Shown here: one piece after another, positions 6,706-60,315 of the stretch
How positions within the stretch are numbered: the stretch's first letter is position 1
How the letters are laid out: every line of letters starts with the position of its first letter
DNA from: Candidatus Tayloriibacteriota bacterium
GTDB lineage: Bacteria; Patescibacteriota; Minisyncoccia; Phycocordibacterales; PALSA-1337
DNA length: 64,000 bases
Direction: 5' to 3'
Assembly (NCBI GenBank): GCA_052034805.1
Contig: JBPOID010000005.1
Span: forward strand, 50,984-114,983
Notes under the pieces: model-generated
Database searches by the model: none
The model's input: only the letters and a program-made list of their open reading frames with translations
What the model was told of the DNA's origin: nothing
Position numbers and translations under genes: made by a program

Positions 6706-7752
6706 CTAATCATTACATATCCCTATCACCGCCATCTCGAGTGGTAAACTCTCTATATAGGCCTTTCCTACTGCATCATATGCTTTTAATAATTCTATAA
6801 GTGCATTTGAATTTATTCTATTCTTTGAATCGGATGAAATGCTTTGTATTATTTTAAAATCATCTTCACTTAATTCTTCTTTTAATCTATCTATGCTTTT
6901 TTTATCTATTATATTTTTTAAAAGTAGGACAATTCTTACTTTTTCTAATATTAAAGCTGTGAAAGTCTTTATGGAAATATTGCCTTCGCGCGCGAGGGAT
7001 ATTGTATTTAATGCTTTTTCTTTTTCTTTATTTGCTATGGCTAATATGAAATCATTTACTATGCTTCCCTTTGGGGCTCCGGTTATATCTTCTACTTCTT
7101 TTATTGAGACTTTCTTATCTTCATTTGTGCTTAATACTTTCTGTAATATTCCTAAAGTGTCTCTGAATGATCCATCTCCGAGTAAAGATATTAGATCTGC
7201 TACTCCATTCTCTAGACTATAACCTTCTTTCTTTGCTATTTTTATTATTAAAGTTTTTAGTATTTCTCTATTTGGTTTTTTGAAAGAAAAGACTTGGCAA
7301 CGGGATACAACGGTTTCTGGTATTTTCTCTGTTTCTGTTGTGGCGAGTATGAATATTGCATGTGCTGGTGGTTCTTCTAGGGTTTTCAATATTGCATTGA
7401 ATGCTTCTTTTGTAAGCATATGCACTTCATCTATTATATAGACTTTATGAGTTGATTCTAAAGGTAATACATTTACCCCATCTCTTATTTCTCTTATATC
7501 ATCTATTCCTCTATTCGAAGCTGCATCTATTTCATAAATATCATTTGGACTAATCCCTAGAGCATTGGCGAATATGCGAGCTATGGAAGTTTTGCCTGTG
7601 CCACGGCTTCCAGAGAAAAGATAGGCATGGGAAATCTTTTTCAATTTTATTGAATTTTCTAAAACATTCACTATATGATCTTGACCGATAACATCTCCCC
7701 AATCATTCGGTCTATACTTTCTATATAAGACTCCGGAAGAATTCTTTTGCAT
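6706..7752 (-). CDS. dnaX: DNA polymerase III subunit gamma/tau, short form
   Basis: YRKYRP...DVIGQ N-terminus, Walker A GSRGTGKTS, and an IIDEVHML box. Confidence 0.8.
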   Translation of the reverse strand: MQKNSSGVLYRKYRPNDWGDVIGQDHIVNVLENSIKLKKISHAYLFSGSRGTGKTSIARIFANALGISPNDIYEIDAASNRGIDDIREIRDGVNVLPLESTHKVYIIDEVHMLTKEAFNAILKTLEEPPAHAIFILATTETEKIPETVVSRCQVFSFKKPNREILKTLIIKIAKKEGYSLENGVADLISLLGDGSFRDTLGILQKVLSTNEDKKVSIKEVEDITGAPKGSIVNDFILAIANKEKEKALNTISLAREGNISIKTFTALILEKVRIVLLLKNIIDKKSIDRLKEELSEDDFKIIQSISSDSKNRINSNALIELLKAYDAVGKAYIESLPLEMAVIGICND

Positions 7753-7759
7753 AATGGTA

Positions 7760-8758
7760 TTATAGCATTTTGATATAGTCCTTCACTATTTTCTCTACTT
7801 CTTTTAATCCATTACTTTCCATAAGCTTTACTCTCAATTCCTTTGCACCATCGAATTCTGATACATAAGCTTTGAAATGCTTTTTCATTATTGCGAAATT
7901 CTTTATCTTTCCTAAATATTTATTAAAAGCTTTTGCATGTTCGAGCATTACGGTTAAACGTTCTTTTATGGTTATATCCTTTATATTTTTATTAGAGAAA
8001 AACCAAGGATTGCCAAATATTCCTCTACCTATCATCACTCCATCGCAACCGGTTTCTTGTATTTTCTTCTTTGCTTCATCTATACTATTTATATCGCCAT
8101 TACCTATTATCAATGTTTCTTTAGAAATTTCATTTCTCATTTTCACTATAATAGGCATTAATTCCCAATGTGCAGGTACATTCGACATTTCCTTTCTGGT
8201 ACGTAGATGTACAGTTAAAACTGGTAATTTCTGTTCTAATAAAGTTCTTATCCAAGTATCTATTTCTATTTTATTGTAACCTATACGAGTCTTCACAGAG
8301 ACGGGTATATTCTTTGCACCTTCTCTTGCTGATTTTATTATTTCTATTGCATGTTCTGAATCCTTTATATGATGAGCTCCTGAACCTTGCTTTTCTATAG
8401 AACGATCTGGACATCCCATATTGAGATCAAGTCCATCGAAACCTAATTCTTCTACTAGACTTGCTGCGGATTTCATCTTTGAAATATTTGATCCGAATAA
8501 TTGTGCCACTATCGGTCGCTCATTTTCATAAAACTCCAAATCCTTTTCGAGATTCTTTCTCCCTTTGGAACATAGTCCATCCGCCGAGACGAATTCTGTC
8601 CACATAACAGTGGGCTTTCCATATTTCGCAAACATAGATCTGAATGCCACATCAGTGACATTGGCCATAGGCGCCATGACGAAAAGAGGCTTTTTCAACC
8701 CTTGCCAGAAATTAGTTTTATTGCCTTTATTTGCCTTTTTATTGCTTATTTTATTCAC
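7760..8758 (-). CDS. dus: tRNA-dihydrouridine synthase
   Basis: FVMAPMANVTDVAFR start and a TIM-barrel Dus signature throughout. Confidence 0.8.
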   Translation of the reverse strand: MNKISNKKANKGNKTNFWQGLKKPLFVMAPMANVTDVAFRSMFAKYGKPTVMWTEFVSADGLCSKGRKNLEKDLEFYENERPIVAQLFGSNISKMKSAASLVEELGFDGLDLNMGCPDRSIEKQGSGAHHIKDSEHAIEIIKSAREGAKNIPVSVKTRIGYNKIEIDTWIRTLLEQKLPVLTVHLRTRKEMSNVPAHWELMPIIVKMRNEISKETLIIGNGDINSIDEAKKKIQETGCDGVMIGRGIFGNPWFFSNKNIKDITIKERLTVMLEHAKAFNKYLGKIKNFAIMKKHFKAYVSEFDGAKELRVKLMESNGLKEVEKIVKDYIKML

Positions 8759-8783: not shown

Positions 8784-9740
8784 CTATTTCAATGTATTAT
8801 TCAAAATAGATAAAATATCATTTGCCCTATCCATACTACCGAGAATCACTATAGAATAAAGTTTTTTGGGTGATCCAATATCGAATAATTCCAAACCAGT
8901 TAATCCAGATTCTGGTATATATCCATTTTTTCCACCTCTATATGATGAAATATTTAGAAATCTTATAGGATTAGTCCATGTATGAGTTCTTATTATTTTT
9001 GTTTTAGTATTTGTTATATCAAATATTTCTTTTTGATTATTCTGTATCCATTCTGACATTATGGATATATCTCTTGCAGTAGAAACATTCTTTGGAGAAA
9101 GACCTGTAGGATCATAGAAAAATGTATTCTTTGCACCTATTGATTTTGCCCAATCATTCATCTTTTTTATAAATGCCTTCCTACCGTATTCACGCGCGAG
9201 GGCTTCGGCGGAATCATTGCTAGAAGTCATAAGTAATGGATATAATAATTCATCTCTAGTGAATTTCTCCCATAGGAATAATCCTCCAGTATCGCCTTGT
9301 GTCTTCAGCACATCTTCGGTAATCTCTATTTTTTTATCTTTATCTATAAGTCTTTCCGCTATAACAGCAGTAGCGAGTTTAGTGATGGAGGCGATTGGCA
9401 AAACTTTATTTGCATTCTTTGAAGCTATTATTTTCCTATTATCCATATCATATAAAAGATATGAAATAGCAGAAATCTCTGAAGAAGGTTTGATTATAAA
9501 ATAATTAGAAGAATTATCTTTTATACCATTATCGATTTTATCTTTTGATGAATATATCAATACTCTAGAAAAAGCAGAAATAAATGTATTATCCAATTCT
9601 TCGCCTTCTTCATCTTTGAATATAACTTTTTTATCTATAGATGAAGCATTGGTTTTATCTATAATAAAAATAGCAAATAAAATACCTACGAATACAGCAG
9701 ATGCAATAGATAAAAAGAATTTTCCCTTGATTTTCGGCAT
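8784..9740 (-). CDS. serine-type D-Ala-D-Ala carboxypeptidase (PBP5/S11-like), membrane anchored
   Basis: SxxK motif ASITKLATAV, N-terminal TM segment, and a YGRKAF region. Confidence 0.65.
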   Translation of the reverse strand: MPKIKGKFFLSIASAVFVGILFAIFIIDKTNASSIDKKVIFKDEEGEELDNTFISAFSRVLIYSSKDKIDNGIKDNSSNYFIIKPSSEISAISYLLYDMDNRKIIASKNANKVLPIASITKLATAVIAERLIDKDKKIEITEDVLKTQGDTGGLFLWEKFTRDELLYPLLMTSSNDSAEALAREYGRKAFIKKMNDWAKSIGAKNTFFYDPTGLSPKNVSTARDISIMSEWIQNNQKEIFDITNTKTKIIRTHTWTNPIRFLNISSYRGGKNGYIPESGLTGLELFDIGSPKKLYSIVILGSMDRANDILSILNNTLK

Positions 9741-12710: not shown

Positions 12711-13025
12711 TAGAGAAAATCGGTTCACTGATTATAAAATTGGACTTTATGTATAAGAAAATTGGACTTCATGTCATAGAAAATTGGACTTGGCTACTAA
12801 GAAAATCGGTTCGCCGATCTTGCGGTCGGAAGCTCTTTTTCTTTACTCCGTACACTCGCAAAGAAAAAGACTTCCTCCCCGTCGGCTCACACGATTTTCT
12901 AATACGTAATCTAGAAAATTGAGACTTGGCACGGTGCGGGAGCCTTTCCGTAACGGAAGTGGAGGAAAGGTCTCACGCACGCAAGATGCCAAGTCCAATT
13001 TTCTTAGTTTAGTTAATTTTCTTAT
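12711..13025 (+). repeat. copy 1 of a ~290 bp nested-palindromic repeat family
   Basis: Shares a >200 bp near-identical core with 58796..59090 and 60041..60315. Has terminal inverted motifs gaaaattggacttggc / gccaagtccaattttc and extra tandem aaaattggactt units at its left end. Confidence 0.85.
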
Positions 13026-16763: not shown

Positions 16764-17837
16764 CTAAATAGAAAAATCTTTCAAAGAATATATTTCTTGA
16801 TTTTCTTCTTCTTTGACTTCTTCTCTTGATCTATCGTCAACAGGTTTATCGTCTTTTGATTCTCCATTTACAATATCTAATGGTGTAGATTTTGATATTG
16901 AAGATATATTTTCTTGAACATATTGTTCTCTTTCTTTTATATGTAATGCATCTATTTCATCTGCACTCATTGCACTGTTTGTATTGTTTGAATTATTAGA
17001 AACTCTATCAGAAATCTTATCTATTATCTTGTGAACATCACTTGCAGTATAGAAATCAATAGTTATACGTCCACCACGGCCGAGTTTGTTTATACTTACT
17101 TTTGTACCAAGCATTTCTTTGAATTTATTTTCAAGCTCAAGCATATCTGGTTCATTTGACCAATCCTTCTTTCTAACTCTATCTTGGGCTGTACGACGAG
17201 CAATAGACTCTGCTTCGCGTACGCTTATCTTTCTAAACATTATTTCTTTAAAGAGAGTCATTTGCTCTTCTTTATGATCTGTAAGCATAAGCAATGGTCT
17301 AGTATGACCTTCTGCTATTTTGCCTTCAGAAAGAGCATTCAATATTTCTTCTGGCAAAGCGAGAATTCTCATAGTATTGGAAACATATTCCCTACTTTTA
17401 CCAACTTTCTCGGCTACTTGTGCGTGCTTTAGATTGAATTCTTTCACAAGGCGATCGAAAGCACGTGCACGATCCACTGCATTTATATCTTCTCTTTGTA
17501 AGTTTTCTATTATGGCTAATTCTAGTTTTATCCTAGGATCATTTTCTCCACTTCGGATAAGCGCTGGCACCTGAGCAAGTCCCGCTACTTTTGAAGCGCG
17601 TAAACGACGTTCTCCAGATATGAGTTCATATTCAACAGCCATACCACCATCAGGCTTTTCATATTCATGACGAGTAACTATAAGAGGTTGTAGAATACCG
17701 TACATTCTTATAGACTCAGCCAAATCTCTGATTTTATCATCATCGAATTCTCTTCTAGGCTGATATGGGTTTGGTTTTATTTTTTCTATTTCAATCCAAA
17801 AGACTGAATCACCAAAATATTGTGATGTATTAGGCAT
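16764..17837 (-). CDS. parB: chromosome partitioning protein ParB/Spo0J
   Basis: IEKIKPNPYQPRREF N-terminal box, HTH core, and a C-terminal acidic tail. Confidence 0.85.
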   Translation of the reverse strand: MPNTSQYFGDSVFWIEIEKIKPNPYQPRREFDDDKIRDLAESIRMYGILQPLIVTRHEYEKPDGGMAVEYELISGERRLRASKVAGLAQVPALIRSGENDPRIKLELAIIENLQREDINAVDRARAFDRLVKEFNLKHAQVAEKVGKSREYVSNTMRILALPEEILNALSEGKIAEGHTRPLLMLTDHKEEQMTLFKEIMFRKISVREAESIARRTAQDRVRKKDWSNEPDMLELENKFKEMLGTKVSINKLGRGGRITIDFYTASDVHKIIDKISDRVSNNSNNTNSAMSADEIDALHIKEREQYVQENISSISKSTPLDIVNGESKDDKPVDDRSREEVKEEENQEIYSLKDFSI

Positions 17838-17937
17838 GGATATATTTTAACATAGAATCATAACATGCAAAATTTTATTTTAAATAAAATTAATAAAATT
17901 GATTTTTACAAAAATATTGGGTATTCTTGTAGAAGAT

Positions 17938-18018
17938 GCCAGAGTGATGAAATAGAAAACATACTCGACTCAAAATCGAGCGCCGTAAGGCTTGTGGGTG
18001 CAAGTCCCACCTCTGGCA
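17938..18018 (+). tRNA. degenerate class-II tRNA-like sequence (tRNA-Leu CAA-like; probable pseudo-tRNA)
   Basis: 7 bp acceptor gccagag/ctctggc, anticodon stem ctcga/tcgag with loop CTCAAAA, a long variable arm, and a T-stem gtggg/cccac. However the D-loop lacks G18G19 and the T-loop reads TGCAAGT, so U55 is replaced by G. Confidence 0.4.
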
Positions 18019-18193
18019 CAGAATACTATAGGAAATATATAGACCTGAGTCTCACCATGCCCACTATTGACAAATCTATATATGTATATTAATATTTTTA
18101 TAGATTGGATAGTTCCAGTTCTACTGCATAGCTTGTCCATTTATAAAAGGATGCAAAGCAGTAAAAACAAAACAACAAAATAAAGAGGTACGT

Positions 18194-19279
18194 ATGAACC
18201 TAAAACTGATGAGGCCAAGTCTCGATGCTATCACCGTGATAGACAAAGACGGTAAACCCCAAGAAAGATTGGTTTTCCGGGGTGTTATCGATGCAAGTAC
18301 GATTGATTCCATCAAAACAGCTGAATACCAGAGGGAAATTCTCTCTGGAGTAAAGGCTAGCTCACTTACTGTGGCGGCCAAGAATTCTACCCTGCCGGAT
18401 ATTGAGCTCGGTATGCGCGGAGACAGATATCAAACAAGGATAGATAAAGACAGGAATGAAGAATTCTTTATCTTACTTGATGATATCTATGTCATCGACG
18501 GCCTACAGAGAATCAACGCTATCAGAACAGTGATGGCGAGTAAGCCTGAGAATCTTCCGAGGATCGGGGCAATGATTCACACTGATACCGATTTTGATTG
18601 GGAGCGAGAGAGATTTCGTACACTCAATCAAGAAAGATCAAGACTTTCACCAAGCATTCTGCTTAGGAACGCAAGAAAAGATCATCCCGGTCTCGAATTG
18701 CTCTATAACCTGAGCACGACCGACTCCAGCTTTATCTTGAATGGTAAAGTGTCATGGGAACAAAGGCAAAAGAAAACTGAGCTCATACCAGCAATGCGCT
18801 TTTGTCGAACCGTGAGTTATCTGCATTCAAGGTTTATCCCTGGTGGTAGATCAGATGATGTTAGAGAACTCATACCATCTCTTGATAAAAAAAGAGATCT
18901 GGTTGGTCCTAATATCATGAGAGATAATATCAAAGCATTCTTTGACCTCATCGATGAATGCTGGAATATCAGACACATTGTCTACAGAGAGCAACAACCT
19001 CAGATCAAGGCGACATTCCTTGAAGTGGTTGCCGACTTTTTGACGAGACATGAGATTTTCTGGAGTGACAAGCGACTGTTCGTGAAAGCTGATCACAAGA
19101 AAAAGCTTTCGAAATTCGCCATAACCGATCCAGAGGTATCCAGACTCTGCGGTTCTGGTGGACAAGCAAGAAATATTCTGTTCCAAATGCTGATTGAACA
19201 CTTTAACAGTGGCAAAAGGCATGGAAGAATCGGAGTAGAACACACGAATGGAAACAGCGAGGAGAATGGGCATGAATAG
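18194..19279 (+). CDS. DGQHR/DndB-like (ParB-Srx nuclease superfamily, DUF262-like) protein; GC-richer foreign-looking gene
   Basis: YVIDGLQRINAI matches the DG(Q)xR box of the DndB / DUF262 / ParB N-terminal domain. Length is 361 aa. An RBS aaagagg precedes the ATG. GC is about 45% by eye. Confidence 0.5.
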   Translation: MNLKLMRPSLDAITVIDKDGKPQERLVFRGVIDASTIDSIKTAEYQREILSGVKASSLTVAAKNSTLPDIELGMRGDRYQTRIDKDRNEEFFILLDDIYVIDGLQRINAIRTVMASKPENLPRIGAMIHTDTDFDWERERFRTLNQERSRLSPSILLRNARKDHPGLELLYNLSTTDSSFILNGKVSWEQRQKKTELIPAMRFCRTVSYLHSRFIPGGRSDDVRELIPSLDKKRDLVGPNIMRDNIKAFFDLIDECWNIRHIVYREQQPQIKATFLEVVADFLTRHEIFWSDKRLFVKADHKKKLSKFAITDPEVSRLCGSGGQARNILFQMLIEHFNSGKRHGRIGVEHTNGNSEENGHE

Positions 19280-19307
19280 TATCCTCTGTTTCAACTAAAT
19301 ACTATCA

Positions 19308-19340
19308 ACCAGCACCCCTTAAAAGGTGCTGGCTTTTTTA
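19308..19340 (+). terminator. intrinsic terminator
   Basis: Stem ccagcacc/ggtgctgg, loop ccttaaaa, then CTTTTTTAT. Confidence 0.65.
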
Positions 19341-19364
19341 TACAAAAAGCATAATATATTATAA

Positions 19365-20219
19365 ATGAAAACTGAAATCGTAATCATACTCGGCCCAACA
19401 GCTGTAGGAAAAAGTGATTTCGCAGTAGAATACGCCATAAAAAATAATGGTGAAATAATATCTGCAGATTCTAGACAGGTATATAAGAAACTAGATATAG
19501 GTACAGGAAAAATAACAAAAGAAGAAATGAAGGGTATACCCCATTATCTTTTAGATATAGTAGATGCAAAAGAACAATTCAATGTAGATAAATGGAAAAC
19601 ATTAGCAGAAAAAGCTATTGTTGATATTTCGAATAGAGGAAAATTACCCATAATATGTGGCGGTACAGGTTTCTATATAGATGCATTAGTAAATGATATT
19701 TCTTATCCAGATATACCACACAATGAAAAGTTGCGTGAAGAGTTGAAAGATAAAGATAAAAAAGAAATATTAAATATATTAGAAAAATTAGACAAAGATT
19801 ATGTTAATAGATTAAATAATTCAGAAAAAAATAATAAACAAAGATTAATACGAGCCATAGAAATAGTACAATCAAAAGGCAAAATGCAAGAAATTATCCA
19901 TAAAAAAGATAATGATAAATACGATGTAACATGGATCGGACTTAATTGTGATATAGAAATATTGAAAGAAAGAATACATAATCGCCTAATAAAGCGCATA
20001 GAAAAAGGTATGATAGAGGAAGTAGAAGATCTATATAAACAAGGTCTTTCTTGGAATAGAATGGAAGAATTGGGACTTGAATATAGATATATATCTAGAT
20101 ATTTGAGAGGAATGATTACAAAAGAAGAAATGATAAAACAATTAGAATTAGAAATAAATCATTATGCAAAAAGACAAATGGTATGGTTCAAGAGAAATAA
20201 AAAGATAGAATGGGTGTAA
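19365..20219 (+). CDS. miaA: tRNA dimethylallyltransferase
   Basis: P-loop GPTAVGKS near the N-terminus and IPHYLLDI; typical MiaA length. Confidence 0.9.
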   Translation: MKTEIVIILGPTAVGKSDFAVEYAIKNNGEIISADSRQVYKKLDIGTGKITKEEMKGIPHYLLDIVDAKEQFNVDKWKTLAEKAIVDISNRGKLPIICGGTGFYIDALVNDISYPDIPHNEKLREELKDKDKKEILNILEKLDKDYVNRLNNSEKNNKQRLIRAIEIVQSKGKMQEIIHKKDNDKYDVTWIGLNCDIEILKERIHNRLIKRIEKGMIEEVEDLYKQGLSWNRMEELGLEYRYISRYLRGMITKEEMIKQLELEINHYAKRQMVWFKRNKKIEWV

Positions 20220-20287: not shown

Positions 20288-21220
20288 CTAGAATTGCTTT
20301 GGCAGGAATCCAGATGCAGCACCATAGCCCGCAGAAACACTATAAACATTACTAGCATCAAAAGATAGCATCCCATTCTCTTCATCGAATTCAAAGCAGG
20401 GCGACCTAGAGAAGTTGCCTTCCTCATCAGAGAACCATTCGTCGCCTGCACAATCAATCCACAAATCATCGTAATCTTGAATACGATCAGGATGTGTGAG
20501 AAGCATCGAACCTACAGCGAATACACCAAGGCCGAATTCATATTCCATATCTTCCATGATGACTCTCGAACGATTGGTAGAACGACCACGATGACGAAGG
20601 CCGAACTGAGCAGGAATGATGAGAATATTAGCATCACCTTGTGTTCTAGCTATCTCATTCCAGAATTGCTCGGAACGACTAGACTGACGCAAATACTTAT
20701 CATTCATTTCATCAGCAAGTGACCTGTAGTTACGTATACTCTTGATAGTAGAGATGATTCTCTTTACCGCCTCACAATAGGTAGAACCGAAAACTTCAGG
20801 ATTCTTCTTCCAGTTAGGAATAGCGAACCAACCTTCTGCAAATCTTGGTAGTCCAGCCGAACGAATACTATTAGTATTGACGAGTATTGTCCGACTGCTT
20901 ACAAAGATCTCTGGAAACAATCCACATAGAAGACTTATCTGATGAGATAAATCCAGAAGTTTGTAACCCGATGGATAACCAGATATGGATTCAATCTCTT
21001 GTTCAGCATACTCATCTACATTTTCAAACTTAGCAATCTGACGAGCAACAAGTGACTGAATGGACGTCACGAATTCAGGATTACCTTTGACGCGTTCCGC
21101 ACTCTTCTCGTTCAAAGCATCAAGTGCATTTTGCACAGGATCAGAATCTGCAACATCACTGATCATACGGATAAGTTGCTTCCTTTGATCATCACTTATC
21201 CCTTCTTGAGTAAGTGCCAT
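20288..21220 (-). CDS. hypothetical cytoplasmic protein, GC-richer (foreign-looking)
   Basis: 310 aa ORF with clean coding statistics and no motif I recognise. It lies between miaA and tRNA-Trp. Confidence 0.5.
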   Translation of the reverse strand: MALTQEGISDDQRKQLIRMISDVADSDPVQNALDALNEKSAERVKGNPEFVTSIQSLVARQIAKFENVDEYAEQEIESISGYPSGYKLLDLSHQISLLCGLFPEIFVSSRTILVNTNSIRSAGLPRFAEGWFAIPNWKKNPEVFGSTYCEAVKRIISTIKSIRNYRSLADEMNDKYLRQSSRSEQFWNEIARTQGDANILIIPAQFGLRHRGRSTNRSRVIMEDMEYEFGLGVFAVGSMLLTHPDRIQDYDDLWIDCAGDEWFSDEEGNFSRSPCFEFDEENGMLSFDASNVYSVSAGYGAASGFLPKQF

Positions 21221-21355
21221 AGACGTTAGCTCCTTTCATGTATGCCGGATTCGCCCCAGCGATTGCGGGTAATTTTTGATGTTTCCATGTCAAATTTCCA
21301 GAGAAAACTATACAATATAGTACAGTATAATGCAATGATTTTAAAAACAAAGTTG

Positions 21356-21426
21356 CGGGCGATCGAGGAATCGAACCCCGGACAACGGTTTTGGAGACCG
21401 TAGTTATACCACTTAACTAATCGCCC
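21356..21426 (-). tRNA. tRNA-Trp (anticodon CCA)
   Basis: Acceptor gggcgat/atcgccc, anticodon stem acggt/accgt with loop CTCCAAA, and T-loop TTCGATT. Confidence 0.8.
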
Positions 21427-21773: not shown

Positions 21774-22829
21774 CTAGCCTTTGCCACCATCGGACGGACC
21801 AGTATAAAGTTTTCCGGGCTTTTGAAAATCAACCCAGTCAAACTTTACACGATATGTTCCATCTGCTGGAAACACAACAGTATATTCACTGTTAAATTTA
21901 CCAGCACCGGTCCAAGGTCCACCGACCTGACTGAAACTAAGAGCAAAAGGATGTTCAATATTAACTTCGGCGCCATCCTGAACTAAACCACTAATGTCAA
22001 ACCTGATGACTTGACCTTTGGTAACTGTGATCAGGACCGTGGGTTTATTGTAAACTTCCACGATTTTCACCAGCGCTACATCCTTCGGTGAAAGTTCGAA
22101 AACATAGTGACCTTCGATCTTCCAAGATCCATTTCTCTCATTGGTGGCGCCAGGGGTATTACCCTTAGCATCCCAAAGATTATAGGTCATAACATTTCCA
22201 TCAGTGAATCTGATAGAGAGAATACCATTAGGTACACCCGCCATCCAAGTATCAAACAAGACTCTATTATTATTCACTGACACGCTCTCTTTCCGAACAG
22301 TGTTACCATCATCGCCGATAACAAGGATTTCGGCTGATTGAACCTGATCCCCAATCGCAACTCTTTGAATCCAGATATTGTACTGAGGAGGTCCATACTT
22401 TCCGATCTCTGAAACGAGATAGGAAGCGTAGCCGTAGAAAACAAGGTTATTGTCCTTGTCGTAAAGCCACACATGACCCTCGATTTTGTCGAGAGGATTT
22501 GCGACTTTGTACTTGAACTCAACAGCGAAAAGCTGATTGAGTACATCTTCTGCTCCGTTACCAGTCTTACTGGCATAGATGACAGAATTGTCATCATAAA
22601 CCATACTCGATGAAGATACCGACCTCGCCCCACGGACAACTTGTCCGAGAGCATAATTCCTGATCGTATCTTTGGACTGAATCGGCATGTCTACCGCCAG
22701 AGCTTTCGTGCTGAAACTGAAACCGATCACCATCATCAAGATAGCAACGATACTACGAATCATGATTTTCATTGTCTTTGTTTCCTTCTTTGGTTTTTCC
22801 TGTGTTTTGTTTTTTGTTGATACTAACAC
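21774..22829 (-). CDS. secreted hypothetical protein (signal peptide, beta-rich), GC-richer
   Basis: Basic N-terminus plus a hydrophobic segment, then a long domain with no motif I recognise. A terminator-like compound hairpin lies at about 21690..21730. Confidence 0.5.
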   Translation of the reverse strand: MLVSTKNKTQEKPKKETKTMKIMIRSIVAILMMVIGFSFSTKALAVDMPIQSKDTIRNYALGQVVRGARSVSSSSMVYDDNSVIYASKTGNGAEDVLNQLFAVEFKYKVANPLDKIEGHVWLYDKDNNLVFYGYASYLVSEIGKYGPPQYNIWIQRVAIGDQVQSAEILVIGDDGNTVRKESVSVNNNRVLFDTWMAGVPNGILSIRFTDGNVMTYNLWDAKGNTPGATNERNGSWKIEGHYVFELSPKDVALVKIVEVYNKPTVLITVTKGQVIRFDISGLVQDGAEVNIEHPFALSFSQVGGPWTGAGKFNSEYTVVFPADGTYRVKFDWVDFQKPGKLYTGPSDGGKG

Positions 22830-22861
22830 CGAAATTGCTTGTTCAATTCATTCTGTCGTTA

Positions 22862-23233
22862 CTACTTCTGTGCCTCTCTCGCAATCTTTTGACGAGCGAG
22901 AATTTCACTTTCGGCCATTGGAATTGGCTGATTTGATGAAGCACCGATCATATTGAAAGATGCACCCTTATCAACCACCTCAATGACTTCCTGCTCCTGA
23001 CCAGCTCGCTTCGCCATGATCTCTGCTTTGGCATCATGACTGCGATTGTTTGCCGGTACTGCATTCTGCAGAACCGGTGTGGTGTCTTTCTTGAACATAG
23101 GCACCATAACGATGGAGACCATGACGAGAATGAGACCCAAACAGAAGAGAACCACAGGGGTTCTCACGACTTTGTTGTCTCGCCTATCGACGATACGATG
23201 ATTGGTTGCCAGAAACTTATGTCCCATAATCAA
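22862..23233 (-). CDS. small membrane-anchored protein co-oriented with 21774..22829
   Basis: One TM segment (VVLFCLGLILVMVSIVMV) and a hydrophilic C-terminus; GC-richer composition. Confidence 0.45.
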   Translation of the reverse strand: MIMGHKFLATNHRIVDRRDNKVVRTPVVLFCLGLILVMVSIVMVPMFKKDTTPVLQNAVPANNRSHDAKAEIMAKRAGQEQEVIEVVDKGASFNMIGASSNQPIPMAESEILARQKIAREAQK

Positions 23234-32663: not shown

Positions 32664-32747
32664 GCCCGGGTGGCGTAATTGGTAGCCGCAGTAGACTTAA
32701 AATCTGCCGACCGTAAGGTCATGTGGGTTCGATTCCCACCCCGGGCA
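32664..32747 (+). tRNA. tRNA-Leu (anticodon TAA)
   Basis: Acceptor gcccggg/cccgggc, anticodon loop CTTAAAA, a long variable arm, and T-loop TTCGATT. Confidence 0.8.
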
Positions 32748-32815
32748 CATTTGATTAGTGTTATATAGAATACCTAACATCCCCCCAACAATCCAAAAGA
32801 TGTTAGAATATAGGC

Positions 32816-57606: not shown

Positions 57607-58791
57607 ATGCCAAACATAACACCAGATATAGAAGCATTCGCTAGAATAAAAGTTATCGGAGTTGGAGGTTCAGGAAAGAACGCTGTGAATCATATGATCA
57701 ATTCCAAAGTAAAAGGTGTTGATTTTATCGCGGTAAACACTGATGCTCAAGACTTGCATCATTCATTAGCAAAAAAGCGTATTCATATAGGGAAAAATCT
57801 AACAAGAGGTCTGGGTACAGGCATGAATCCAGAAATGGGTAAAAGAGCAGTAGAAGAAAGCAAAGAAGAAGTACAAGAAGCTATAAAGGGTGCGGATATG
57901 GTATTTGTGGCTGGAGGATTGGGCGGAGGCACATGTAGTGGAGCAAGTCCTGTTATAGCGAGAACAGCCAAGGAACTCGGTGCTCTTACAGTAGCTGTTG
58001 TAACTAGACCATTTTTCTTCGAAGGACAACAAAGATCAAAAATAGCAGAATCAGCATTAGAAGATTTAAGAAAAGAAGTTGACGCTATTATAGTTATACC
58101 TAATGATAGACTTCTATCTACAATAGACAAAAACACTACAGTAAAGAATGCTTTCGCAATATGTGATGAAATATTACGCCAAGCAGTAGAAGGCATATCT
58201 GATCTTATAACAACTCCTGGAATCATAAATATAGACTTTGCAGATATAAGAACTGTTATGGAAAATGCTGGTTCAGCTCTCATGGGTATAGGTTCAGCAT
58301 CAGGAGAAAATCGTGCAATAGAGGCAGCAAAGCTCGCTATAAACTCCCCATTATTAGATATATCTATACATGGAGCAAAAGGAGTTCTATTCTCAATAGC
58401 TGGTGGTGAAGATCTAACAATGTTCGAAATACAAGACGCAGCGAAAGTTATTACAGAATCCATAGATCCTCAAGCAAAAGTTATATTCGGTACAGTTAGA
58501 GATGATAAGCTAAAGAAAAATGAAGTAAAAGTAACCGTTATAGCTGCGGGTTTCCTAGGTAATACAAAAGAAGGCGTTACAAAAGAATCACCAAATACAA
58601 AGATAGAAAATATATCAATACAAGCAGATATTACAGCAAAAGAAGAAAAGAAAGGTAAAATCTTTAATAACATATCAACACCAATAAAAGAGAAAGTATT
58701 GGTTGAAGAAAAGAAAGAAATCAAAAATAGTGATGATGACGATGATTGGGGTGCGGTACCGGCTTTCTTGAGGAGATCAAAATTGAAATAA
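57607..58791 (+). CDS. ftsZ: cell division GTPase FtsZ
   Basis: GVGGSGKNAVNHM, tubulin signature GGGTCSGASPVIA, and an acidic C-terminal tail. Confidence 0.95.
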   Translation: MPNITPDIEAFARIKVIGVGGSGKNAVNHMINSKVKGVDFIAVNTDAQDLHHSLAKKRIHIGKNLTRGLGTGMNPEMGKRAVEESKEEVQEAIKGADMVFVAGGLGGGTCSGASPVIARTAKELGALTVAVVTRPFFFEGQQRSKIAESALEDLRKEVDAIIVIPNDRLLSTIDKNTTVKNAFAICDEILRQAVEGISDLITTPGIINIDFADIRTVMENAGSALMGIGSASGENRAIEAAKLAINSPLLDISIHGAKGVLFSIAGGEDLTMFEIQDAAKVITESIDPQAKVIFGTVRDDKLKKNEVKVTVIAAGFLGNTKEGVTKESPNTKIENISIQADITAKEEKKGKIFNNISTPIKEKVLVEEKKEIKNSDDDDDWGAVPAFLRRSKLK

Positions 58792-58795
58792 TCTT

Positions 58796-59090
58796 TAGAA
58801 AATTGGACTTGGCATACAAGAAAATCGGTTCGCCGATCTTGCGGTCGGAAGCTCTTTTTCTTTACTCCGTACACTCGTAAAGAAAAAGACTTCCTCCCCG
58901 TCGGCTCACACGATTTTCTAGTTTACAATATTACATACTAGAAAATTGAGACTTGGCACGGTGCGCAGAACTTTCTTTTTAGTCGCTTGTCGATAAAAAG
59001 AAAGTTTACTGCGCACGCAAGTAGCCAAGTCCAATTTTCTCGTATACGAACCGATTTTCTTAGATACGGACCAATTTTCTACAGACTATG
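58796..59090 (+). repeat. copy 2 of the ~290 bp nested-palindromic repeat family (variant central hairpin)
   Basis: Shares left and right arms with copies 1 and 3. The centre is cagaactttctttttagtcgcttgtcgataaaaagaaagtttactg, itself a palindrome. Confidence 0.85.
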
Positions 59091-60040: not shown

Positions 60041-60315
60041 AATTGGTTCGCCTATTAGAAAATTGGACTTGGTATACAAGAAAATCGGCTCGCCGATCTT
60101 GCGGTCGGAAGCTCTTTTTCTTTACTCCGTACACTCGTAAAGAAAAAGACTTCCTCCCCGTCGGCTCACACAATTTTCTAGTTTGTAATATTCCATACTA
60201 GAAAATTGAGACTTAGCACGGTGCGGGAGCCTTTCCGTAACGGAAGTGGAGGAAAGGTCTCACGCACGCAAGATGCCAAGTTCAATTTTCTAATAGGCGA
60301 ACCGATTTTCTATTT
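60041..60315 (+). repeat. copy 3 of the ~290 bp nested-palindromic repeat family
   Basis: Near-identical to copy 1, including the central ggagcctttccgtaacggaagtggaggaaaggtctc hairpin. It is in the same orientation as copy 2, on the other side of trxB. Confidence 0.85.

Follow-up and report, generated by a model that had tools for sequence, protein, structure and literature searches.

A tRNA-Leu(CAA) gene with a non-canonical A18/G55 elbow, probably functional, in a strain-specific segment of a Patescibacteria chromosome

The DNA at positions 17938-18018 (+) probably represents a functional tRNA-Leu(CAA) allele that carries an alternative A18/G55 elbow and was imported by a 1.45-kb allelic replacement. 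The window, as the whole 64-kb stretch of DNA analysed here is called, is a bacterial chromosome of ~33% GC in which dprA, topA, parB, miaA and alr are present and the tRNA-Leu(CAA) gene is solitary. The features of the locus are as follows.

16764-17837 (−): parB, the divergent neighbour anchoring the parB/tRNA-Leu(CAA)/miaA arrangement (Pfam ParB_N and HTH_ParB; synteny in 47 loci)
17936-19383 (+): strain-specific replacement segment, 1,448 nt (blastn of the sister-strain contig L081 against the window; junction sequences)
17938-18018 (+): tRNA-Leu(CAA) gene with a non-canonical elbow (ARAGORN, RF00005, sequence and fold, A18/G19 register)
18019-18066 (+): 48-nt spacer separating the tRNA from the DndB-like gene promoter, similar to no fetched locus
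18067-18095 (+): sigma-70-like promoter of the DndB-like gene, TTGACA, 17 nt, TAATAT (promoter scan, 10 of 12 matches)
18102-18163 (+): conserved 5' leader of the DndB-like gene, predicted to form two hairpins, at 18102-18121 and 18122-18163 (alignment and RNAalifold)
18194-19279 (+): DndB-like gene with a DGLQR motif, 361 aa, ~43% GC (257 homologs; sub-threshold DndB, DGQHR and GmrSD_N matches)
19309-19340 (+): intrinsic terminator of the DndB-like gene unit, CCAGCACC..GGTGCTGG and then a T run (terminator scan)
19365-20219 (+): miaA, tRNA isopentenyltransferase (Pfam IPPT, 1e-68)

Fold and identity of the tRNA

The Rfam tRNA model RF00005 (gathering score, 29) was run over the whole window and matched 17938-18018 end to end (model positions 1-71) with 52.6 bits and an E value of 2e-8. 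ARAGORN independently called a tRNA-Leu(CAA) at 17938-18018 (+), and the gene is therefore not a chance match. It reads GCCAGAG UG AUG AAAUAGAAAA CAU A CUCGA CUCAAAA UCGAG CGCCGUAAGGCUU GUGGG UGCAAGU CCCAC CUCUGGC A. The 23 stem pairs (acceptor, 7 bp; D, 3 bp; anticodon, 5 bp; variable arm, 3 bp; T, 5 bp) contain no mismatches. The molecule is of class II, with a long variable arm, a CAA anticodon in the loop CUCAAAA, U33, and A37; A73 is position 18018, and CCA is not encoded. The core and leucine identity elements, as listed in PMC2377443 and PMC6614811, were present in the expected register: A73, U8:A14, A15:U48, G19:C56, U54:A58, and G53:C61. An earlier note on this DNA had given the same coordinates and strand and described a class-II cloverleaf with a perfect 7-bp acceptor stem, a CAA anticodon and a U55-to-G change, all of which were confirmed.

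The departures from a canonical leucine tRNA lie in the elbow, where G18 and pseudouridine-55 form a tertiary contact and G19:C56 makes the outer face (PMC4810234). In the T-loop, UGCAAGU, the replacement of U55 by G is the only change, and U54, C56, A57, A58, and the G53:C61 pair are all kept. The D-loop, AAAUAGAAAA, is A-rich. The nearest relative has GAAAUGG where the window tRNA has GAAAUAG, and the G of the AG dinucleotide at +4/+5 from A14 stands in the G19 register of 369 canonical tRNAs. The alignment and the A14 register together indicate that G18 alone is replaced, by A, and that G19, the Watson-Crick partner of C56, is kept. The absence of both D-loop guanines claimed in the earlier note therefore applies to G18 but not to G19. 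Both partners of the G18-U55 tertiary pair are thus exchanged, for A18 and G55. The lack of a G18:U(psi)55 pair does not place the gene outside the tRNA family, because the covariance model still scores it well. With A18 and G55, the tRNA cannot carry pseudouridine-55 or Gm18.

Ten tRNA genes were found in the window. The other nine all have GG in the D-loop and a GTTCRA T-loop, and a D-loop without GG together with UGCAAGU occurs only at 17938-18018. ARAGORN detected no second tRNA-Leu(CAA) within the 64-kb window; a tRNA-Leu(UAA) gene is located at 32664-32748. UUG makes up 16% of the leucine codons in 61 ORFs of the window.

Replacement of the tRNA-Leu(CAA) allele and the gene that accompanies it

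The chromosomal slot of the gene was compared among ParB-anchored loci. All ParB homologs with a named source were from Patescibacteria (Taylorbacteria and Paceibacteria-type). Eighty such loci from other species were fetched, and the first 60 were scanned for tRNAs; a tRNA-Leu(CAA) was found near parB in 47 of the 60, mostly directly adjoining it and divergent from it, and miaA was in the parB neighbourhood in 47 of the first 90 loci. Every one of the 47 parB-adjacent tRNA-Leu(CAA) genes was canonical, with G18G19 and U55. A canonical tRNA-Leu(CAA) at the same slot in 47 other Patescibacteria indicates that the slot is ancestral. The window gene is their positional ortholog and the sole G55 tRNA-Leu(CAA) among the 48 orthologous loci, and its RF00005 score is the lowest of the orthologs measured (53.4-62.2 bits in the canonical ones). 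Its backbone is closest (85% identity) to a canonical cellular Patescibacteria tRNA-Leu(CAA), that of L076. The canonical class-II genes of the 47 loci and of L081, which lie next to parB and upstream of miaA, share with it the cloverleaf, the long variable arm, A73, U8:A14, A15:U48, G19:C56, U54:A58, and the CUCAAAA loop, whereas the window tRNA has A18 for G18, G55 for U55, and its A-rich D-loop.

The order of divergent parB, tRNA-Leu(CAA), and miaA is conserved in many Patescibacteria (window 16764-20219; L002-L059, L081, and L085). Base-level reading of two loci, L081 and L085, placed the 3' end of the tRNA 1-11 nt before miaA, and the pair is therefore probably co-transcribed, judging from this spacing. 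With its A36-A37, tRNA-Leu(CAA) is a substrate of the MiaA type. An inserted gene unit with a terminator separates it from miaA in the window.

A sister strain is represented by the ENA contig L081, whose ParB is 100% identical to that of the window. By blastn, its flanks were 98.9% identical to the window up to 17935 and 99.8% identical from 19384. In place of the 1,448-nt segment, L081 has 123 nt comprising a canonical tRNA-Leu(CAA), 11 nt, and a miaA 5' end unlike that of the window, and the DndB-like gene is absent. The segment in the window contains the unusual tRNA, the 48-nt spacer, the DndB-like gene unit, and the first codons of miaA. The first 19 nt of miaA are within it, so that the N-terminus reads MKTEIVI.. 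in the window and MNNPINITV.. in the sister strain. On the upstream side, the native sequence is preserved as far as 2 nt from the tRNA gene. The tRNA-Leu(CAA) genes of the window and L081 differ along their whole length, which indicates that the unusual tRNA did not arise from the native one by decay and was swapped in whole. The single-gene insertion proposed in the earlier note is thus real, with exact limits at 17936 and 19383, but the tRNA lies inside the segment and does not form its outer border.

Two independent Logan assemblies from different runs, L082 and L083, matched the window with 100% identity over a stretch of 6.5-6.9 kb that includes the tRNA, and an assembly artefact is thereby ruled out. 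The short contig L084 breaks off inside the tRNA, at 17949, as expected at a polymorphic junction. The segment is therefore a presence/absence polymorphism, being absent from L081 and present in L082, L083, and the window. The next species, L085 (ParB 83% identical), has the canonical compact arrangement, and because L085 and 47 other species share it, the canonical compact haplotype was taken as ancestral by parsimony. These results indicate that the tRNA-Leu(CAA) allele was replaced as a whole within one Patescibacteria species. No DndB-like gene was found near parB in 80 other genomes, and neither the last 23 nt of the spacer (18042-18064) nor the exact D-arm strings of the tRNA had an exact match in viral contigs.

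Other variable DNA was seen in this region. L081 (reverse complement 7272-8642) has a ~1.4-kb insertion, absent from the window, that carries a reverse-transcriptase (RVT_1) ORF. It adjoins tRNA-Trp (window ~21360; tRNA-Trp 21355-21426) and is thus a second strain polymorphism beside a tRNA. The window contains no fewer than three copies (12746-12938, 58779-59037, and 60057-60225) of a ~170-260-nt sequence that matches the end of L081 with 89-97% identity, a multi-copy element or a repeated gene fragment. The ORF regions 20288-21220 (−) and 21774-23233 (−), of ~42-44% GC, flank tRNA-Trp and gave no match in Pfam, NCBIfam, or PADLOC. Since the 20288-21220 region is also found in the sister strain, higher GC alone does not mark strain-specific DNA here.

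The DndB-like ORF begins 175 nt downstream of the tRNA and has ~43% GC against ~33% in the window; the earlier note had likewise placed a GC-rich gene downstream of the tRNA. Judged by its sequence, the gene belongs to a Patescibacteria-wide family: 257 homologs were retrieved, most of them unnamed, and all of those with a named source are from metagenome-assembled genomes of the Patescibacteria group. The protein scored 18.9 bits against PF14072 (curated cut-off, 29.1) and 26.4 bits against TIGR03187 (curated cut-off, 58.85). Searches of PADLOC, NCBIfam, Pfam, and PDB sequences gave sub-threshold matches at most, and no solved structure related to the protein was found in the PDB sequence search. 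Its likeness to DndB, DGQHR-domain, and GmrSD_N proteins (ParB-like nuclease superfamily) consists of the DG(L/Q)QR motif and a weak profile similarity over approximately residues 97-210; it differs from them in falling below the curated thresholds and in having no dnd or dpd partner genes nearby.

The TTGACA element upstream of the DndB-like gene is conserved in the homolog loci L171-L177. The two leader hairpins are followed by an A-rich tail and a Shine-Dalgarno sequence. RNAalifold on six leader sequences predicted 18 pairs, 4 of which show compensatory changes. The two-hairpin leader is thus a candidate for an unreported cis-regulatory (riboswitch-like) RNA. The leader region (window 18067-18193) was also located at L171 1612-1710, L173 2772-2870, L174 3385-3490, L175 4780-4877, and L177 175-275. 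In more distant homologs, the Shine-Dalgarno sequence is closely preceded by another conserved hairpin, GGUUCGCUAUCCC..GGGAGCUAGAACC, ~30-80 nt upstream of the start (L106, L109, L112, L114, L118, L119, L122, L128, L130, L131, L134, and L136). It occurs in tandem in L112 and L114 and had no Rfam match in the loci tested. Neither leader type matched Rfam 15 at E ≤ 1.

None of the five closest relatives of the DndB-like gene has an adjacent tRNA, and four of the five lie just downstream of pheS or pheT; in the one closest-homolog locus with an annotated downstream gene, that gene is gyrB. Among 125 homolog loci scanned (80 metagenome, 7 closest-homolog, and 38 'viral' loci), a tRNA was present within 1 kb in at most about 5, and none was of the G55 type. 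The similarity of the window to the homolog loci begins at 18065, at the promoter, and the tRNA and the spacer are therefore outside the conserved unit of the gene. A dedicated tRNA partner of the DndB-like family was rejected on these grounds, the tRNAs in the 125 loci being rare, unrelated, and never of the G55 type.

A18/G55 tRNAs in viral tRNA arrays

For this analysis, an A18/G55 class was defined as tRNAs with a U54-G55-C56-R57-A58 T-loop and an A18-G19 D-loop in the G18G19 register. The window tRNA has these features (UGCAA and AAAUAG), although it is chromosomal and solitary and is not encoded in a viral genome or tRNA array. A scan of viral contigs for the Leu-CAA anticodon arm followed by GUGCRA retrieved four phage tRNA-Leu(CAA) genes, all four with a D-loop lacking GG, and a scan with the 15-mer of the window T-arm retrieved more than 120 loci. 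The viral labels of the IMG/VR collection are predictions, and some of the contigs may not be viral. ARAGORN was run on every fetched locus and the loops were parsed, which gave 488 unique, well-formed tRNAs. U55 was present in 376 of them, 372 of which had GG in the D-loop. G55 was present in 88, mostly in phage tRNA arrays, a count that is no frequency in cells or viruses because the scans required G55 and covered the viral collection. GG was missing from 80 of the 88, and the other eight read AGG or have GG at positions 15-16; position 18 is A in essentially all 88, with G19 in the canonical register.

The association was also seen in tRNAs that shared a locus with the hits and had not been selected by the search pattern. 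Among these, GG and AG were found in 254 and 2 of the U55 tRNAs and in 6 and 52 of the G55 tRNAs, respectively (Fisher p = 6e-50). Some arrays consist of G55 tRNAs throughout (18 of 18 in L214 and 6 of 6 in L210), and many others mix G55 and U55. Since both elbow types occur within single phage arrays, the same cell machinery must use both. The G55-type tRNAs of L214 and L278 that were matched to Rfam scan rows scored ~50-64 bits.

Viral loci of 30-62% GC yielded 18 independent class-II tRNA-Leu genes of the G55 type, with the D-loop consensus GAAU(N)AG(A/C)AGAC. The window D-loop 'GAAAUAGAAAACA' and the T-loop UGCAAGU, which is the commonest in the A18/G55 class, are both identical in a G55-type tRNA-Leu(UAA) of the viral locus L278. 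A D-loop common to L278 and to loci of 30-62% GC indicates that its richness in A is a shared design and not AT-biased decay. The A18/G55 tRNAs of viral arrays (IMG/VR; L214, L262, L210, and L278) have the same UGCRA T-loop and A18-G19 in the canonical register. The window gene differs from them in being chromosomal, in encoding no CCA, and in having stems nearer to those of cellular Patescibacteria tRNA-Leu(CAA); its closest relative among the G55-type phage tRNA-Leu genes is at most 73% identical.

Several further observations concern elbow types. A57 was present in 68% of the G55 tRNAs and in 25% of the U55 tRNAs. Arrays that are wholly or largely G55/A18 are those of L214, L210, and L262 (and L213, L274, L278, L286, and L291), and short (type-I) tRNA-Leu genes are included in them. 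Among ~140 tRNAs in the fetched genome and metagenome loci, G55 was found only in the window gene and in one gene of L059, a Parcubacteria chromosome. The latter (8803-8875, −) is a 73-nt type-I tRNA-like gene, 'tRNA-Leu(AAG)', with the T-loop UGCAAAC and a D-loop lacking GG. It is followed by a terminator and lies between the 3' end of topA and a relA/spoT-like gene.

BLAST of the window tRNA plus spacer against cultured phages gave only weak matches, to canonical tRNA-Leu genes, and the G55 tRNAs of L278 had no match there. The tRNAs of T5, Mycobacterium phage Alice, Mesorhizobium phage Cp1R7A-A1, Serratia phage 4S, Synechococcus phage RN05-S, and Ralstonia phage RSP15 were all U55; the first three of these phages carry large sets of tRNAs. 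In the tRNA-Ile(GAU) of T5 (L357 3211-3287), the T-loop is UUUAAAU, with U56, and the D-loop (AGCGAUCUAA) lacks GG; A19:U56 may be another kind of compensated pair in the elbow. In the literature on G55/A18 tRNAs, phage tRNA elbows, and Patescibacteria tRNA loops, no description of an A18/G55 elbow class was found.

Alternative explanations and the meaning of the A18/G55 elbow

It is rather improbable that the gene is a tRNA pseudogene in early decay, that is, an imported allele with a broken elbow pair that is poorly charged or folded while tRNA-Leu(UAA) reads UUG. Such a reading would account for its position as the unique outlier among 48 orthologous loci, with the lowest RF00005 score of those measured, and for four D-loop differences from the consensus that are all towards A in an AT-rich genome. 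It also fits the importance of the elbow pairs to bacterial LeuRS (PMC2377443), and the tRNA-Leu(UAA) at 32664-32748 might read UUG by wobble, which would make tRNA-Leu(CAA) dispensable and free to decay. However, the 23 stem pairs have no mismatches, the changes relative to the relatives being compensatory; the exact D-loop and T-loop recur in phage tRNA-Leu of large tRNA arrays; A18 and G55 covary (p ~1e-50); and the sequence is identical in three assemblies. Neither the disrupted stems nor the score far below the orthologs that would mark a pseudogene was found (52.6 against 53.4-62.2 bits). The earlier note had judged the tRNA decayed and probably non-functional. That judgement is contradicted by the intact stems, the other tertiary and identity elements that are kept, the near-ortholog score, and the recurrence of A18/G55 in 88 tRNAs. 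The note had itself named a high-scoring call as a functional tRNA, or an intact tRNA-Leu(CAA) existing only here, as grounds for giving it up. What was found goes part of the way, in that the covariance model scores a normal tRNA and this is the only tRNA-Leu(CAA) slot in the window. Still less credence can be given to an attachment-site scar, in which an integrative element would have entered tRNA-Leu(CAA) and then been deleted except for one cargo gene and a tRNA copy, either hybrid or element-borne. tRNA genes are classical integration sites, the tRNA occupies the left end of a strain-specific segment, its 5' end being 2 nt from the boundary, and the A18/G55 elbow is otherwise found mainly in viral contigs. 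Against this, a search of the 64 kb that tolerated up to 3 mismatches found no repeat of the tRNA 3' half; the last 25 nt had no second match at that setting in the window, and direct or inverted repeats flanking the segment were limited to chance-level short matches. The segment holds one ORF only, with no integrase or other mobile-element gene. The tRNA differs from the native one as a whole and not in its 3' part alone, the right junction is inside miaA and not in a tRNA fragment, and the backbone is nearest to a cellular Patescibacteria tRNA-Leu(CAA) (85%), phage ones reaching at most 73%. The locus resembles tRNA-associated genomic islands and prophage att sites in having strain-specific DNA of different composition beside a tRNA. 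It differs from them in lacking an integrase and a duplicated tRNA segment and in having a single cargo gene. In addition, the exchange takes in the entire tRNA together with the opening codons of miaA, a pattern that resembles allelic replacement rather than site-specific insertion. The att remnant suggested in the earlier note is likewise at odds with a full-length tRNA that is not partially duplicated, at a slot from which the native tRNA is absent.

It seems very unlikely that the sequence is a tRNA-like element that has no part in translation and serves the DndB-like gene as regulatory leader, decoy, or cofactor. The two are adjacent on the same strand, they arrived in the same tract, and the terminator scan found no terminator between them. 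Nevertheless, a tRNA lies within 1 kb in at most about 5 of 125 homolog loci, never of the G55 type and never beside the closest homologs, the similarity to the homolog loci starts at 18065, downstream of the tRNA, and the DndB-like gene has its own promoter and leader. The regulator proposed in the earlier note also has to face ~120 homologous genes elsewhere that have no such tRNA and a conserved promoter and leader that begin 48 nt downstream of it. What might speak for an artefact of assembly or sequencing, for example a chimeric join at the tRNA, is the contig L084, which ends inside the tRNA at window 17949. Such an artefact is hardly conceivable, since L082 and L083, from different runs, span the whole locus with 100% identity and the break in L084 is what a strain polymorphism at the junction would produce.

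As regards the functional allele preferred here, a 1.45-kb tract with the tRNA, a DndB-like unit that appears self-contained (promoter, structured leader, CDS, and terminator), and the first miaA codons would have replaced the native canonical tRNA-Leu(CAA). The tract may have moved by recombination with a relative or with a phage. The contact between G18 and pseudouridine-55 would have been exchanged for A18-G55 with all else of the leucine tRNA kept, and A18/G55 would represent a recurrent, co-varying alternative elbow that stands beside canonical tRNAs in the arrays of uncultured phages. On sequence grounds, A18/G55 is likely to be a compensated pair that preserves the elbow, and we infer from the preserved elbow that the tRNA is charged and used. 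It would be transcribed from the unchanged native upstream region, processed, charged with leucine, and decode UUG. Bacterial LeuRS depends on the integrity of the elbow and not on the identity of its bases, and the compensatory exchange G19U:C56A restores charging (PMC2377443). In E. coli, G18:U55 is less important than G19:C56 (PMC6614811). On the other hand, G18C alone lowers leucylation efficiency ~10-fold in Aquifex aeolicus (PMC2377443), and A18/G55 could therefore be costly with the LeuRS of this host. Animal mitochondrial tRNAs, tRNA-Pyl, and the Streptomyces bldA tRNA-Leu(UAA) without G19 (PMC6614811) are functional despite departing from G18G19/T-psi-C. These reduced-elbow tRNAs mostly lose contacts, whereas the window tRNA keeps G19:C56 and has its inner pair exchanged for another purine-purine combination that covaries.

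We tentatively raise the possibility that A18-G55 is an unrecognised functional elbow design that keeps the G19:C56 face, dispenses with modification by TruB and TrmH, occurs in tRNA arrays of uncultured phages over a broad span of GC contents, and has here displaced the native tRNA-Leu(CAA) of a Patescibacterium with a reduced genome. If so, A18/G55-type tRNAs can replace cellular tRNA genes, and the elbow type would be under selection in the conflict between phage and host, for example by letting the tRNA evade, or do without, a factor that recognises positions 18 and 55. G18, G19, and U55 count as near-universal tRNA positions, and a gene that lacks them is routinely interpreted as a pseudogene. 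The present case suggests that such a reading can be wrong and that the 18:55 pair may be exchanged as a unit; annotation rules that flag A18/G55 genes as degenerate would then miss working tRNAs. Should the class prove functional, it would constitute a natural experiment on what pseudouridine-55 and G18 are needed for, on how LeuRS, RNase P, EF-Tu, and the ribosome read the elbow, and on why phages carry both types. In this Patescibacteria species, the replacement event cut the conserved pairing of tRNA-Leu(CAA) with miaA and inserted a gene that appears to be independently regulated.
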